Positions 2,163 to 59,358 of a stretch of 64,000 bases of DNA are shown here, in pieces (the first letter of the stretch is position 1; each line of letters starts with the position of its first letter). Source of the stretch: an uncultured Bacilli bacterium. GTDB taxonomy: Bacteria > Bacillota_I > Bacilli_A > RF39 > UBA660. The stretch spans positions 18 through 64,017 of the forward strand of contig CALVKJ010000002.1 of NCBI GenBank assembly GCA_944332675.1, given 5' to 3'. Made by a program: the position numbers and the translations under genes. The notes below the pieces were generated by a model. That model did no database searches, was not told the DNA's origin, and saw only the letters and a list, made by a program, of their open reading frames with translations.

Positions 2163-2510
2163 CTAAATCCATTGGGGATTAAAATCTTCAGGATTGTCTT
2201 TATTATATAATATAGTAACATCCATTATTGGTAAAGTGCTATCTAGAAATTCTTGAGCATAACCTGGTTCAAACGCATCTTCAACTGCTAATTCCTTTAA
2301 AGGGTTTTCCTTATGTTTAAGATCCTTATTTCTAGCCGTTATATTTTTTTCATCTTTAGTAGTAAATGAGAAAACTGGATAATGAAAGCCATTTTCTTCA
2401 ATAAATTCAACTATTTTCCCATCAACTTTTTCATAATTCCGATTACAAATTTTAACAATTATAACAATAATCAGCACTATAATTACAATACTTAAAGTAA
2501 TATAAAACAT
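2163..2510 (-). CDS. small N-terminally anchored membrane protein
   Basis: N-terminal TM helix (FYITLSIVIIVLIIVIIV) followed by a soluble domain. It sits 9 nt upstream of the 1590..2153 gene on the same strand. Confidence 0.5.
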   Translation of the reverse strand: MFYITLSIVIIVLIIVIIVKICNRNYEKVDGKIVEFIEENGFHYPVFSFTTKDEKNITARNKDLKHKENPLKELAVEDAFEPGYAQEFLDSTLPIMDVTILYNKDNPEDFNPQWI

Positions 2511-2634
2511 ATTAAAATCTCCTTTTACTTTAATCTATTATAACATAAAAAAATGGCATTAAAAACAATAAGTACGTACTTATGAGCTTTTAATTGTTAA
2601 AATATGTTATAATTAAAATAGTAAAGGAGGCAAA

Positions 2635-3177
2635 ATGCAAAAAATTGAATTTGGCTTTGCTAATGATAAAAATCCTAAAGGAACGTGGGAAGGTATTGGT
2701 ATTAGACAAGGTCTATTACTTACTGAAGCAGACTTTTATGGTACAGTTAAAATTGAGAGTAATTCTTATATAGTTGCTAAAGTTACTGAAGATGAATATG
2801 ACCGTTATCCAGAATTGCTAGACAAATTCCTAGTAAGGCCAGCATTAGTGGACCTTTATCCCGATGGATCAGGGACATTATTTATAGATCAAGATGAATC
2901 TTTTGAGGCTTATCAATTAGAAGAATATTTAAATAGTTCCCAAGTTAAAGATAGAATATCTAGCATTGAAGATGTAATTAATTTAAGTAATGGAGTAGTT
3001 CCTGCTGATAAAGCCTTTCAACTTTTAACAGATCAAGATAAAGTAGTAGCAATATCGATTACTCACGATGCTTTTGAAAGAAAAAATAGTGCTTTAAAAA
3101 ATTGCCACTTGTCATTTTCAGAGTTGCAAATGCGTTATGAACAACAACTAGCAGAAAGCCAAAGTGTAAGTAGATAA
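2635..3177 (+). CDS. hypothetical cytoplasmic protein
   Basis: 180-aa ORF with an AAAGGAGG RBS about 6-7 nt upstream of the ATG. No recognisable motif. Confidence 0.55.
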   Translation: MQKIEFGFANDKNPKGTWEGIGIRQGLLLTEADFYGTVKIESNSYIVAKVTEDEYDRYPELLDKFLVRPALVDLYPDGSGTLFIDQDESFEAYQLEEYLNSSQVKDRISSIEDVINLSNGVVPADKAFQLLTDQDKVVAISITHDAFERKNSALKNCHLSFSELQMRYEQQLAESQSVSR

Positions 3178-3242
3178 AATAAAACTTATCTGCTTTTAAT
3201 TTGACTATTATTTTTGTATAATGTTTTTGGAGAGTGCTTACT

Positions 3243-3932
3243 ATGGAAAATGAATATTATAAAGCTTATGATGAAAGATATAAACAAGTCCATGGCAAAA
3301 ATATGTTATGGGCAACACTCAAAAATACTAAAGAAGTAATTGATGCTATAAGAAAGTATAATATATCCAAGACGGATAAAATATTAGATCTTGGTTGTGG
3401 CGAAGGAAGAGATGCTTCATTTCTACTTAATGAAGGATTCAATGTAACAGCTATAGATTATTCAAGTGAAGCCATCAAAAAGTGTAATGAACTTACAAAT
3501 AATAAATATCAAAACAATTTTAAAACATTAGATATATTTGAAGATCACTTAGATGATAAATTTAGATTTATCTATTCAGTTGCAGTATTACATATGTTTG
3601 TTTTAGATGTTCATCGCAATAAATTTTTAGAGTTTATCTATAATCACTTAGAAGACGATGGTATTGCTTTAATTTGTGTTATGGGAGATGGAAAAGAAGA
3701 ATTTCAAACAGATATTAATACATCTTTTAACAATACAAAAAGAAAAATATTACACAATAATCAAACTATAGAAGTTGCAACAACTTCCTGCCGGATTGTA
3801 AATATGGATACTTTCAAAAGAGAATTAACTAACAACGGTTTTTTAATTAAAAAAATATGGATAGCAGAAGATATCCCCGAATTTAACAAATCGATATGTG
3901 CTATAATAAATAAACAATCAAAATTAAAATAA
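3243..3932 (+). CDS. class I SAM-dependent methyltransferase
   Basis: Motif I ILDLGCGEGRD and downstream acidic-loop pattern. The ATG at 3243 has a GGAGAG RBS; the track start at 3234 is GTG. Confidence 0.75.
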   Translation: MENEYYKAYDERYKQVHGKNMLWATLKNTKEVIDAIRKYNISKTDKILDLGCGEGRDASFLLNEGFNVTAIDYSSEAIKKCNELTNNKYQNNFKTLDIFEDHLDDKFRFIYSVAVLHMFVLDVHRNKFLEFIYNHLEDDGIALICVMGDGKEEFQTDINTSFNNTKRKILHNNQTIEVATTSCRIVNMDTFKRELTNNGFLIKKIWIAEDIPEFNKSICAIINKQSKLK

Positions 3933-14077: not shown

Positions 14078-14272
14078 GATAAATTAAAAGAAAATTCAAT
14101 TATTCGAAAAATTCGAATAACTGCTTCTGATGGCAAAGAATATAACACAAATTTCTATAGTTTAAATGCAATATAGAGTTAATTCAAAGGAAGCAATTAG
14201 TTTTAGAATATGGGCAACAAATACATTAAAAGAATATATTAAAAAAGAATATGTTTTAAATACTGAATGATA
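14078..14272 (+). pseudogene. RhuM-family (virulence/Fic-associated) gene remnant
   Basis: Translates to ..IRKIRITASDGKEYNTNFYSLNAI*RVNSKEAISFRIWATNTLKEYIKKEYVLNTE*, matching only the conserved central RhuM block. It has an internal stop and no N- or C-terminal parts. Confidence 0.5.
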
Positions 14273-14294
14273 AAAAAATTCTAGCAATTAAACA

Positions 14295-15083
14295 CTAGAA
14301 TTTTTTAATTAACTTACTTTCAATAAAGATAATTATTTTGTAAAGTATGTAAGAAATAATAATAAGTATTAATATTCCTGCCATAACTAAACTTAGATTA
14401 AATACTTGAGTACCATATATAATTAAATAACCAATTCCTTCTTTACTAACTAGGAATTCTCCCATAATTACTCCAATTAGACTCATTGAAATATTAAGTT
14501 TTAAACTAGAAATAATAGTCTTGTAAGAACTTGGAATAACCAAATGAGTTAATATTTGCGCTTTAGTTGCTCCAAATGATTTTATTAGTTTCATCTTTTT
14601 ATCATCAACATTTACAAAACCATTATAAATTGTAATTATGCTTACTATTAAATTAATAAGCAAAGCCATCACAATTATACTTTTAGTGTTAGCTCCTGCG
14701 ATTATGATAATAAGGGGCCCTAAAGCAACTTTAGGTAAAGAATTAATCATTGTCAAAAATGGATCAACTATTTCCGCAAGTATTGGTATCTCATAGAGAA
14801 TTATAGCTATAATAAATCCTAGTAAAATTCCTAAAACAAAAGCAATTAAAACTTCTTTAAGAGTTGTTAAAATATGATTAAATAAATTATTTTGAGCGAT
14901 AAGCCCCAAAATTGTTTCCCATATTTCACTAGGTTTTGAAAAGACAAATGTATTGATAATATTTTTATTAGCTAAGAATTCCCATAAAGCTAAAAATCCA
15001 ATTACAATTATCACTTGAACTAATATAACAAAGTATTTACGTATCTTTATTTTTTTTAAATACCGTTGTTGCTCTTTAGACAT
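14295..15083 (-). CDS. ABC transporter permease (NitT/TauT, SsuC-like family)
   Basis: Six TM helices and a BPD-type EAA-like loop. Overlaps the ATPase gene by 8 nt. Confidence 0.8.
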   Translation of the reverse strand: MSKEQQRYLKKIKIRKYFVILVQVIIVIGFLALWEFLANKNIINTFVFSKPSEIWETILGLIAQNNLFNHILTTLKEVLIAFVLGILLGFIIAIILYEIPILAEIVDPFLTMINSLPKVALGPLIIIIAGANTKSIIVMALLINLIVSIITIYNGFVNVDDKKMKLIKSFGATKAQILTHLVIPSSYKTIISSLKLNISMSLIGVIMGEFLVSKEGIGYLIIYGTQVFNLSLVMAGILILIIISYILYKIIIFIESKLIKKF

Positions 15084-57489: not shown

Positions 57490-57498
57490 TTAACTAAT

Positions 57499-57528
57499 AA
57501 CTGTTACATTTTTGTAGCAGTTTTTTAT
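57499..57528 (+). terminator. rho-independent terminator
   Basis: AACTGTTACA-TTTT-TGTAGCAGTT hairpin followed by a T run. Confidence 0.6.
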
Positions 57529-57562
57529 TTCTCAAAAAATTTCAAAAAAACAAATTTACACA

Positions 57563-57591
57563 TTGAAAACGAACAAATGTTATGATATACT
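57563..57591 (+). promoter_or_regulatory. promoter with LexA (Cheo) box-like sequence in the spacer
   Basis: TTGAAA-17 nt-TATACT. The spacer contains CGAACAAATGTTAT, which matches GAAC-N4-GTT of the Bacillus-type SOS box CGAAC-N4-GTTCG. Confidence 0.4.
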
Positions 57592-57616
57592 GTATTTAGT
57601 TATAGGGGGGTAAAAA

Positions 57617-58492
57617 ATGAATAATCTAGTAAAAGATGAAACAAACATTGAAAACTTAATTTATGAAATCCGGGGAGTGCAAGTAATGCTAGATAGCGAT
57701 TTAGCAAAAATTTATGAATGCGTTAATGGGACAAAGTCTATAAATTTAGCAGTTAAAAGACACATTAACAGATTCCCAGAAAGATTTATGTTTCAATTAA
57801 CCAAAGATGAATATTGGAATATTCTAAGGTTTCAATCTGAAACCTTAGAATTGGAACAAGGAAAATATTCTAAATATTTGCCTTATGCTTTCACAGAACA
57901 AGGTGTAGCTATGCTTGCAACAGTACTTAGAACTCCTGTTGCAGAAGAAGTAAGTATCAAAATAATGGATGCTTTTGTTGCAATGCGTAAATATATATCA
58001 ACAAACTTACTTGAGCAAAAATATATAAACAATTTAGTTATAGAACATGATTCAAAAATAAAACTATTACAAGAATCATTTGAAAAATTTAATGAAGAAA
58101 AGAAAGTTAATGAAATATATTTTGACGGTCAAATATATGATGCTTATTCCAAGATACAAGAAATATTTAAAGAAGCCAAGACCAAATTAGTAATAATTGA
58201 TGGCTATGCCGATAATACCATATTAGATATTATTAAAAGATTAAATATACAAGTAACAATTGTAACTAAGCCAAATAATTTATTAACAACACAAGATATA
58301 ACAAGGTATAATGGGCAATATAATAATTTAACAGTAAAATATGATAATACATTTCATGATAGATACTTTATATTAGATGATAGTGTAGTATATCATTGTG
58401 GTGCTAGTATAAATAGAATAGGTTATAAAACATTTTCAATAACTAAAATAAATGATGATGAAGTATGTAAGGCATTGATCAACAAAATATAG
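57617..58492 (+). CDS. ORF6N-domain (KilA-N-like, phage antirepressor-type) protein, full length
   Basis: IYEIRGVQVMLDSDLAKIYE..KRHINRFPERFMFQL..LPYAFTEQGVAMLATVL is the ORF6N signature. Has a C-terminal extension domain. Confidence 0.8.
   Translation: MNNLVKDETNIENLIYEIRGVQVMLDSDLAKIYECVNGTKSINLAVKRHINRFPERFMFQLTKDEYWNILRFQSETLELEQGKYSKYLPYAFTEQGVAMLATVLRTPVAEEVSIKIMDAFVAMRKYISTNLLEQKYINNLVIEHDSKIKLLQESFEKFNEEKKVNEIYFDGQIYDAYSKIQEIFKEAKTKLVIIDGYADNTILDIIKRLNIQVTIVTKPNNLLTTQDITRYNGQYNNLTVKYDNTFHDRYFILDDSVVYHCGASINRIGYKTFSITKINDDEVCKALINKI
57821..57851. repeat. perfect 13-bp-arm inverted repeat inside ORF6N copy 1
   Basis: ATTCTAAGGTTTC-AATCT-GAAACCTTAGAAT. Confidence 0.85.
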
Positions 58493-58504
58493 GAGATAAA
58501 CAAA

Positions 58505-58954
58505 ATGAACAATCTAGTAAAAGACGAAACAAATATTGAAAAATTAATTTATGAAATTCGCGGAGTACAGGTGATGCTTGATTCAGATTTAGCAAGACTT
58601 TATGAGTGCGCTAATGGAACAAAGACAATTAACCAAGCTATAAAAAGAAATTTAGAAAGATTTCCAAATGATTTTTACTTTCAACTAACTAAAGAAGAAT
58701 TATTTGACTTGAAGTCCCAAATTGGGACTTCAAGTTGGAATAGTTATGGTGGTGTTCGTAAGTTACCTTATGCATTCACAGAACAGAGAGTAGCAATGCT
58801 TGCAACAGTTATTAAAACGTCTATTGCTGCCGGTATGAGCGTTAATATAATGAGAGCCTTTGTAGCCATGCGTAAATATATTTCAAAAAACTTAATCGAA
58901 CAAAATAATATTAACAACTTAGTTTTAGAGGATCACACTATTATTGGAAAATAG
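58505..58954 (+). CDS. ORF6N-domain protein, truncated tandem paralogue
   Basis: N-terminal 140 aa collinear with copy 1, then a stop. Downstream DNA still aligns to the copy 1 C-terminal coding sequence. Confidence 0.65.
   Translation: MNNLVKDETNIEKLIYEIRGVQVMLDSDLARLYECANGTKTINQAIKRNLERFPNDFYFQLTKEELFDLKSQIGTSSWNSYGGVRKLPYAFTEQRVAMLATVIKTSIAAGMSVNIMRAFVAMRKYISKNLIEQNNINNLVLEDHTIIGK
58707..58735. repeat. perfect 14-bp-arm palindrome inside ORF6N copy 2
   Basis: ACTTGAAGTCCCAA-A-TTGGGACTTCAAGT. Confidence 0.85.
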
Positions 58955-58989
58955 AAAAAGAATTAGTTTAATTTAAGAATTTTTAATAA

Positions 58990-59215
58990 AGTTTGAAGAA
59001 AAGTAAAAGGTAAGTGAGATATATTTTGATGGCCAAATATACGATGCATATTCTAAAATACAATAAAAATTTAAGGAATCCAAAAATAAGCTAGTAATAA
59101 TTGATAGTTATGCTGATACAACAAATCTTGATATTATTAAAAGATTGAATATAATGAAATTCAAGGTCCCAACTTGGGACCTTGAATTGAAAATATTTAT
59201 CTTATATATTTACTG
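58990..59215 (+). pseudogene. decayed remainder of ORF6N copy 2 plus a fragment of a third copy
   Basis: ..EIYFDGQIYDAYSKIQ*..KLVIIDSYADTTNLDIIKRLNI aligns to copy 1 residues with stops. It abuts a fragment (MKFKVPTWDLELKIFILY..FTEQG) that begins at another palindrome. Confidence 0.6.
59158..59188. repeat. perfect 15-bp-arm palindrome in the third ORF6N fragment
   Basis: AATTCAAGGTCCCAA-C-TTGGGACCTTGAATT. Confidence 0.85.
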
Positions 59216-59275
59216 AACAAGGTTCCAAATTGAAAACTTAAAATTATTAACAAATAAAATTAAACAAATTTAAAC

Positions 59276-59300
59276 TTGAAGTCAAAAATTTCGACTTCAA
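59276..59300. repeat. degenerate copy of the same palindrome family
   Basis: TTGAAGTC-AAAAATTTC-GACTTCAA. Confidence 0.6.
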
Positions 59301-59358
59301 AAATAGTAAATTAATTGTTATTTAGCTATATTAATGGTAAAATTAGATTGTGATGTAT

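Follow-up and report, generated by a model that had tools for sequence, protein, structure and literature searches.

Palindromic protein-binding sites are found within open reading frames (ORFs), as in the case of lacO2 in lacZ and of parS inside spo0J/parB, and the initiator protein O of phage lambda binds the dyad-symmetric iterons of ori-lambda that lie within gene O itself, in the part of the gene that corresponds to a flexible linker. Restriction-modification C proteins are small helix-turn-helix dimers that autoregulate a potentially toxic mobile defence cassette via palindromic C-boxes. The present analysis concerns a palindrome internal to ORF6N genes, studied from a 64,000-nucleotide stretch of DNA of an uncultured Bacilli bacterium (GenBank assembly GCA_944332675.1, contig CALVKJ010000002.1, positions 18 to 64,017; lineage RF39, UBA660), the whole of which is referred to hereafter as the window. 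This palindrome is probably the duplex DNA site of the protein encoded by the very gene that contains it, and would likely act as an autoregulatory operator. A binding site for the encoded DNA-binding protein was one of several roles listed in an earlier note made from the letters of this DNA alone; it is the one favoured by the data, since residues 41, 44 and 48 of the recognition helix predict bases 3-5 of the half-site.

The locus holds two ORF6N genes together with fragments of others. Its genes, recognition helices and palindromes are as follows (positions in the window, palindromes split as arm + middle + arm):

57617..58492, + strand: ORF6N copy 1, intact, 291 amino acids (Pfam PF10543 E=1.7e-28; PADLOC PDC-S05 E=9e-90).
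57731..57760, + strand: codons 39-48 of copy 1, predicted recognition helix TKSINLAVKR with S41, L44 and R48 (AlphaFold helix; mutual information).
57821..57851, no strand: site 1, 14+3+14, centre 57836, half-site TGAAACC (class GAA), ATTCTAAGGTTTCA-ATC-TGAAACCTTAGAAT, encoding ILRFQSETLE.
58505..58954, + strand: ORF6N copy 2, truncated to 149 amino acids (Pfam PF10543 E=1.1e-29; ORF list).
58619..58648, + strand: codons 39-48 of copy 2, putative recognition helix TKTINQAIKR with T41, Q44 and R48 (class-to-triplet table).
58707..58735, no strand: site 2, 14+1+14, centre 58721, half-site TTGGGAC (class GGG), ACTTGAAGTCCCAA-A-TTGGGACTTCAAGT, encoding DLKSQIGTSS.
58955..59153, + strand: decayed rest of the C-terminal half of copy 2, with stop codons (74% identity to copy 1 58054-58249).
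59158..59188, no strand: orphan site 3, 15+1+15, centre 59173, class GGG, AATTCAAGGTCCCAA-C-TTGGGACCTTGAATT (inverted repeat).
59276..59300, no strand: orphan site 4, a relic, 8+9+8, centre 59288, one arm mutated (TTG/TCG), TTGAAGTC-AAAAATTTC-GACTTCAA.

Both genes pass the ORF6N gathering score of 27.8 bits (Pfam PF10543; 99.2 bits for copy 1 and 103 bits for copy 2). Copy 2 is 77% identical to copy 1 in nucleotide sequence; its DNA-binding domain is complete and its C-terminal domain decayed, and the decayed remains on its 3' side extend to the diacylglycerol-kinase gene (dagK). Sites 1, 2 and 3 are perfect palindromes and site 4 has one mismatch; as the counterpart of site 4 is perfect in two related assemblies (L006 and L158: TTGAAGTCGAAAATTTCGACTTCAA, class TCG), the site of the window carries a single G>A change. 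A pattern such as that of site 2 has 0.00 occurrences expected when the window is shuffled. In all copies, the centre of the dyad falls on the first base of the codon that follows Gln73, and in copies 1-3 the palindrome lies a few codons ahead of the LPYAFTEQG block, as the earlier note had it (comparison of repeat family D4); a relic of this block, at 59186-59223, comes after orphan site 3. The perfect palindromes reported at the homologous position of the paralogues are real, with the sequences as given, and reach far wider than the window. The palindrome of copy 1 had been given with the right sequence, but with its arms and loop as 13+5+13, whereas they split as 14+3+14; likewise, the peptides read from copies 1 and 2 were right, but fragment 3 had been read in the wrong frame, the homologous frame giving SRSQLGTLN, a known ORF6N variant.

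The dyad is a property of the whole ORF6N family. Among 78 related loci of gut Bacilli assemblies (57-83% protein identity), about 60 hold a perfect palindrome with arms of 11-17 bp at the same codon, in many different sequences, and the same dyad, with the same odd spacing, recurs in some 100 related genes; the 80 ORF6N genes of a wider set that have it span more than 12 phyla, with members from Bacteroidota, Campylobacterota, Planctomycetota, Nitrospirota, Desulfobacterota, Verrucomicrobiota, Clostridia, one archaeon and others; a dyad also occurs in other families of the class. The symmetry might, as the earlier note conceded, have been absent outside this locus; instead, it is found family-wide and across phyla. 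Complementarity between the arms, measured by distance from the centre, is 67% at position 1, 89-100% at positions 2-12 and 85% at position 13, and has fallen to the background of 30% at position 16; the element is thus a 27-bp dyad. Its unpaired middle is always odd and the spacing of its half-sites constant, in the clade set as well as in the cross-phylum set.

A constrained amino-acid motif combined with codon usage, also raised in the earlier note, is ruled out as the cause of the symmetry by synonymous shuffling. When synonymous codons were redrawn according to the usage of these genes, with the amino-acid sequence kept fixed, 0.04% of the shuffle trials produced a stem of at least 10 bp; of the 102 real genes, 63% have one. 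Codons that these genes seldom use occur in the arms, namely TTG (13%), AGG (13%), TCC (4%), GGG (8%), ACC (8%) and GCG (5%). Moreover, eight genes of a subtype with the peptide ..FLVENFDQK.. carry the same palindrome read one base out of frame relative to ..LRSKISTS.., and the residues encoded by the palindrome belong to a loop (71-89) of the AlphaFold model in which residues 74-84 have a pLDDT below 50. What is conserved at the palindrome is the DNA rather than the peptide, and the view that selection acts on the nucleic acid holds on all three counts: the codon-shuffle control, the out-of-frame subtype and the low-confidence loop. In two related loci, L078 (~1698-1700) and L014 (~2596), the Gln codon of the palindrome is TAA in otherwise full-length genes (LRS*IATS and LRF*IGTS, respectively); this is a C>T change at base 3 of the half-site, by which the reading frame is stopped and the dyad broken together.

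The dyad co-varies with the recognition helix of the protein. In a coupling analysis of 82 unique domains, protein columns were compared with half-site bases and the palindrome's own codons set aside; the highest mutual information with bases 3, 4 and 5 is that of residues 48, 44 and 41. These residues are spaced i, i+3, i+7 on one face of helix 39-48, the second helix of the helix-turn-helix, and together they predict bases 3-5 in 81/82 genes of this clade and in 66/71 genes across phyla, as listed below (the cross-phylum entries rest on residues 44 and 48 only):

T/S, L, R at 41, 44, 48: GAA in 26/27 genes of this clade.
T, Q, R at 41, 44, 48: GGG in 16/16 genes of this clade.
R, E, R at 41, 44, 48: GCG in 10/11 genes of this clade.
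R, E, N at 41, 44, 48: TCG in 9/9 genes of this clade.
D, K, R at 41, 44, 48: GGA in 7/7 genes of this clade.
E/A, Q, N at 41, 44, 48: TTG in 6/6 genes of this clade.
E, R at 44, 48: GCG in 18/18 genes of the cross-phylum set.
Q, R at 44, 48: GTG in 27/32 genes of the cross-phylum set.
L, R at 44, 48: GAA in 7/7 genes of the cross-phylum set.
K, R at 44, 48: GGA in 7/7 genes of the cross-phylum set.
E, N at 44, 48: TCG in 3/3 genes of the cross-phylum set.

Base 3 is G with R48 in 63/64 genes and T with N48 in 18/18. Pairings of Arg with G, Asn with A:T, Glu with C and Lys with G belong to ordinary major-groove chemistry. Both genes of the window agree with the code, the GAA class of site 1 with the copy 1 helix (S,L,R) and the GGG class of site 2 with that of copy 2 (T,Q,R); orphan site 3 is of the GGG class as well, the class that is paired with the copy 2 helix. 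Mapped on a tree of the remaining domain sequence, the site class and residues 44 and 48 show 23 changes each and the joint label 24, so that the site class and the residues switch together, the count of independent switches being rough for about 80 residues of related sequences. Linkage alone is ruled out by residues 49-69: placed between helix and site, they carry far less information. Contact covariation inside the protein is ruled out by the frame-shifted subtype, which obeys the same helix-to-base code despite its different peptide. Finally, paralogues of one locus share a class in 2/32 pairs, against 6.3 expected.

In the mechanism that would account for these results, the ORF6N protein dimerises, probably through the long helix 109-161, and two winged helix-turn-helix domains would sit on the two half-sites, each of which reads T-T-[G/T]-N-[G/A]-A-C-[C/T]... 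outward from the centre. Residues 41, 44 and 48 would set half-site bases 3-5, GAA in the case of copy 1 (S,L,R) and GGG in that of copy 2 (T,Q,R). As identical subunits read both half-sites, a change of specificity would be mirrored in both arms and appear "compensatory" without any hairpin, and the location of the site in the codons of a disordered loop would leave the peptide free to follow the DNA. Binding by the encoded dimer, which we infer from the code, could then block RNA polymerase about 220 nucleotides (nt) into the gene. The most likely role would be negative autoregulation of a potentially harmful defence gene, which is the most economical guess. Regulator and operator would travel together with the cassette, and orphan sites would be relics of lost paralogues, kept for as long as a protein of the matching class continues to be produced. 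The source assembly shows no wider regulon, complementary sites of this type being confined to the ORF6N loci of contigs C2, C6 and C18; a dispersed repeat or mobile hairpin (REP, MITE, attC) was rejected on the same distribution. The idea that the host protein targets the same site in phages was also set aside, the exact sites of the window being absent from the viral contig collection. Ahead of copy 1, a consensus scan gave a candidate promoter:

57563..57591, + strand: promoter-like site TTGAAA-17-TATACT with TG upstream, preceding ORF6N copy 1, a candidate only.

A sequence identical to this candidate is also present ahead of the decayed ORF6N locus on contig C6 of the same assembly, where two further decayed ORF6N fragments (46.9 bits) each contain a palindrome of this kind.

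Symmetry of such length could instead reflect a folded nucleic acid, whether an mRNA hairpin or a DNA hairpin or cruciform, selected for the pairing itself and acting in the pausing or attenuation of transcription or translation, or as a processing site. The stems are indeed strong, with DNA-fold energies of -12 to -15 kcal/mol and z of about -7 (-6.8 to -7.5 for the three perfect copies), the symmetry of 13 bp per arm goes beyond a typical operator, and the weak constraint at position 1 is what a 3-nt loop would give. However, the mismatches of the sense strand comprise 16 G·T and 16 A·C pairs, and this equality leaves no sign of a single-stranded RNA, in which a bias towards G·U would be looked for. 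The parity and the place of the loop never change, which a hairpin would allow; no T-tract follows the stem on the + strand; Rfam 15 has no covariance-model match (best E=0.21, far below gathering scores); and a hairpin gives no reason why three recognition-helix residues should go with bases 3-5. A fold as the selected form is consequently regarded as distinctly unlikely. The hairpin proposed in the earlier note is not required where fixed half-site spacing and a symmetric dimer yield the paired changes, and its attenuator role fails because no + strand terminator occurs at the palindromes. More generally, an intrinsic terminator or attenuator was rejected for want of a T-tract and of any + strand terminator-like match at any of the four palindromes, and the only + strand terminator found (57499-57522) is that of the upstream gene.

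The orphan sites bear on another possibility, which is that the palindrome has no function, perfects itself by within-strand template switching and is tolerated by the loop that it encodes. Template-switch correction of quasi-palindromes is an established mutational process, perfect arms do persist in many decayed fragments and in dense arrays, and the peptide of the low-confidence loop is unconstrained. Against this, full complementarity at positions 2-12 is kept by 68/104 sites in intact domains (65%) and by only 40/122 orphan sites (33%; p=1e-6); symmetry thus decays after gene loss, which counts against its upkeep by template switching. Single-arm mutations and hybrid sites persist in close strains (site 4 of the window, L157 and L158), and a helix-to-base code cannot arise from such a process. 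Coding palindromes, furthermore, are restricted to a few DNA-binding families of defence islands instead of being spread genome-wide: a census of the assembly counted 61 perfect palindromes, mostly terminators or A+T-rich sequences, and those in coding sequence are confined to four DNA-binding families, which also disposes of a generic mutational artefact of the genome. Self-perfection by template switching is on these grounds judged highly improbable.

In the case of orphan site 3, symmetry goes with the presence of copy 2. The site is perfect in the window and in L006, both of which have a GGG-class copy 2, and degenerate in L156, L157 and contig C18, all of which are without a GGG-class gene; this amounts to about one independent contrast and is suggestive of a link between the two. 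The first 520 bp of contig C18 (C18:1-520), which is part of the same assembly, are a second, L156-like version of the window locus without copy 2, in which the end of a copy-1-like gene is followed by a degenerate site 3 (GGTCCAAAGTTAGGACC), a GAA-class site 4 and dagK; this reflects either the binning of two strains into one assembly or polymorphism of the locus within the sample.

The palindrome could also serve recombination or nicking, as the place where ORF6N cassettes undergo cutting, swapping, duplication and deletion, and both the tandem arrays and the junctions of decay would then be explained. Among close strains, the slot enclosed by the DUF362 gene and dagK varies in ORF6N content from one to four genes: L156 has one ORF6N gene, L157 one and fragments, L158 four, and the window two and fragments. 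This slot (window 57490-59350) is a hot spot, and copy 1 is 91-97% identical among strains. The junction between decayed copy 2 and fragment 3, which the earlier note had placed exactly at a palindrome, is within 4 nt of it, the homology between copies 2 and 1 stopping at about 59153, 4 nt short of the palindrome. A CAA-N-TTG centre is common to all sites, the C-terminal domain of the protein has a PLD-like fold, and chimeric or hybrid sites exist (L158 genes 2 and 3; L078 site 8). In L158, the tandem genes at 1605-2444 and 2501-3373 keep a GAA core between mismatched outer arms (CTTGCGG vs CTTCAAG); given the copy-2-like sequence 3' of the dyad, these genes are chimeras with the junction inside the palindrome. 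The copy-2 orthologue of the same locus (L158:3386-3661) has a frameshift inside its own palindrome.

The inferred breakpoints do not cluster at the dyad. A triplet breakpoint scan of 76 full-length genes returned 5 events under strict thresholds and, once these were relaxed, 53 distinct breakpoints, its power being low upstream of the site, where only about 220 conserved nt are available; 0/53 inferred breakpoints lie within 20 nt of the dyad centre, and they cluster 45-200 nt downstream, so that "recombinogenic", the word chosen in the earlier note, finds no support in intact genes. The site sequences differ from one gene to another, and a recombinase of the conservative site-specific type would not tolerate such variety; the neighbours of the loci inspected include no recombinase, integrase or transposase gene; the HKD motif of the protein has the form H-x-R, not H-x-K; and the retention of sites in relics is explained equally well by selection for binding. 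A dedicated recombination site is accordingly held to be very unlikely, though, given the few chimeric and hybrid sites, occasional exchange may take place at the shared CAA-N-TTG centre.

Dense arrays of orphan sites are found upstream of ORF6N genes in two related loci. L078:1040-1480 contains 8 palindromes in 450 bp, separated by spacers of 14-45 nt, and L088:250-1700 contains 8 palindromes among heavily deleted gene relics. Orphan arrays were considered as operators of the adjacent gene and ruled out, because they mix many classes. The same arrays enter into a broader proposal, in which ORF6N genes are self-contained modules of protein plus site with a simple, reprogrammable code and the in-gene site, beyond being an operator, is a tether or sensor of defence. 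The effector domain (PLD-like, Fic/Doc or PD-(D/E)xK) would remain silent while the dimer sits on its own gene, to be released or induced upon degradation or remodelling of the host DNA by a phage, and neighbouring arrays of orphan sites would tune the response by holding paralogous proteins. Such a tether is conceivable, albeit unlikely.

A site for the encoded dimer remains the preferred reading of the palindrome, and several points weigh against it. Autoregulation is a guess and not a result. The arrays of L078 and L088 mix many classes, with a matching gene for only ~4/7 orphan classes in the assembly of L078, and operators of the neighbouring gene do not explain them. Exceptions to the code are (T,L,R)-GGA in L142, (E,Q,R)-GGA in L149 and (T,Q,R)-GTG outside this clade, and the relatedness of the sequences behind a tree of some 80 residues leaves only a rough number of independent switches. 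For the outer positions of the dyad (8-13) no clean protein partner was found, the best columns (82-87) adjoining the site and perhaps mirroring subfamily only, and perfect symmetry to position 12-13 exceeds that of most helix-turn-helix operators.

If binding is true, the DNA target of every ORF6N member could be read from the gene itself, and the family would gain a residue-to-base table of at least nine classes. The arrangement would represent a design principle of mobile genes, a regulator and its operator being fused in one ORF and inseparable by transfer; it would mean that the Pfam signature "LRSQ..TS" is conserved because of the DNA and not of the peptide, and would also account for the palindrome arrays beside ORF6N genes, though not fully for those of mixed class. 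The family concerned, which extends over phages and more than 12 phyla, is very widespread and almost unstudied, and it fits the model of a candidate anti-phage gene. No description of the internal palindrome was found in Rfam or in the literature searched for ORF6N.

In terms of architecture, the AlphaFold model of copy 1 (pLDDT 81) consists of a winged helix-turn-helix, a 50-residue helix and a PLD-like alpha/beta C-terminal domain. The PLD fold of the latter is matched by Foldseek with a probability of 1.0 to F13, PLD3/4, Zucchini and the nuclease domain of SauUSI, over 110-160 aligned columns. The HKD catalytic motif H-x-K-x4-D-x6-G-S-x-N is replaced by a conserved H247-D-R249-x4-D254-x5-H260-C-G262-A-S264-I-N266, in which Arg stands in place of Lys and the spacing is altered. 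No sequence relative with a solved structure was found for the ORF6N protein. The best Foldseek match of the whole model is TrmBL2 (PDB 5bpd, 5bpi; E=7.6e-6, TM-score ~0.3), and TrmB and TrmBL2 share with copy 1 the order of winged helix-turn-helix, long dimerising helix and PLD-like C-terminal domain. They have, however, no sequence similarity to copy 1; TrmBL2 is a chromatin protein that binds DNA without sequence specificity, and the operators of TrmB are located in promoters, whereas the ORF6N site is inside the gene. By profile match, copy 1 is a candidate anti-phage gene of the PDC-S05 type, its residues 6-290 aligning with positions 12-299 of the 306 of the PADLOC profile (PDLC04869). 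In E. coli B, phages T7 and T5 plate about 1000-fold less in the presence of one RhuM-type representative of PDC-S05, taken from another organism, and the account of this test makes no mention of an internal palindrome (bioRxiv 10.1101/2024.09.26.614923). The tested representative has a RhuM domain, as opposed to the ORF6N and PLD-like domains of copy 1.

RhuM-family genes have palindromes of their own. In two genes of the assembly (C17:17388-17412 and C7:16361-16387) and in related loci (L110-L139), a perfect palindrome with arms of 10-14 bp is placed about 15 codons past the gene's own helix-turn-helix, AACTGTCGCAAATTTTGCGACAGTT and AGAAAATTCGGAATTTCCGAATTTTCT being two examples; such a palindrome is present in almost every RhuM gene sampled in the class, and its inner triplet varies with the residue ahead of the helix's conserved His. 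A literature search on RhuM and palindromes gave nothing relevant. The window itself has a decayed RhuM-domain fragment with five in-frame stops at ~14157-14318 (G000:C2:14174-14335). A KilA-N-like gene contains an even-spaced palindrome, AAAGGTCACGAATTCGTGACCTTT, and two DUF1016/YhcG-like genes contain palindromes at homologous codons, PIVDTLCPQLSW and PIWGSLNPKLTW (C31:7057-7080, C15:11894-11922 and C35:7474-7500 for the KilA-N-like and DUF1016/YhcG-like set). The recurrence of this layout in genes of the RhuM, KilA-N-like and DUF1016-like types points to a general rule among the single-gene passengers that defence islands carry.

Compared with the systems described at the outset, the ORF6N genes resemble lambda O in having what are probably cognate sites in their own coding sequence, and a switch of specificity in lambdoid phages involves the N-terminal binding domain and the sites jointly. 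The lambda protein is nevertheless unrelated to ORF6N in fold and family, and its four iterons form a replication origin, whereas an ORF6N gene has one 27-bp palindrome per chromosomal gene and no sign of replication. C proteins are alike in that their specificity classes have diversified against cross-talk; they belong to a different family, and C-boxes are upstream of the gene, not in its coding sequence. The parS of spo0J/parB is, as the ORF6N palindrome probably is too, a site inside the gene of its own binding protein, and the same assembly contains three parS-like palindromes with TGTTTCACGTGAAACA within 520 bp (C8:13883-14406). None of these precedents is known as a family-wide site at a fixed codon with co-varying specificity classes. 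Sites such as lacO2 and parS are single cases with one fixed sequence, whereas the ORF6N palindrome extends over a whole domain family, at one fixed codon, and its specificity classes, of which there are at least 9, vary together with the recognition helix.

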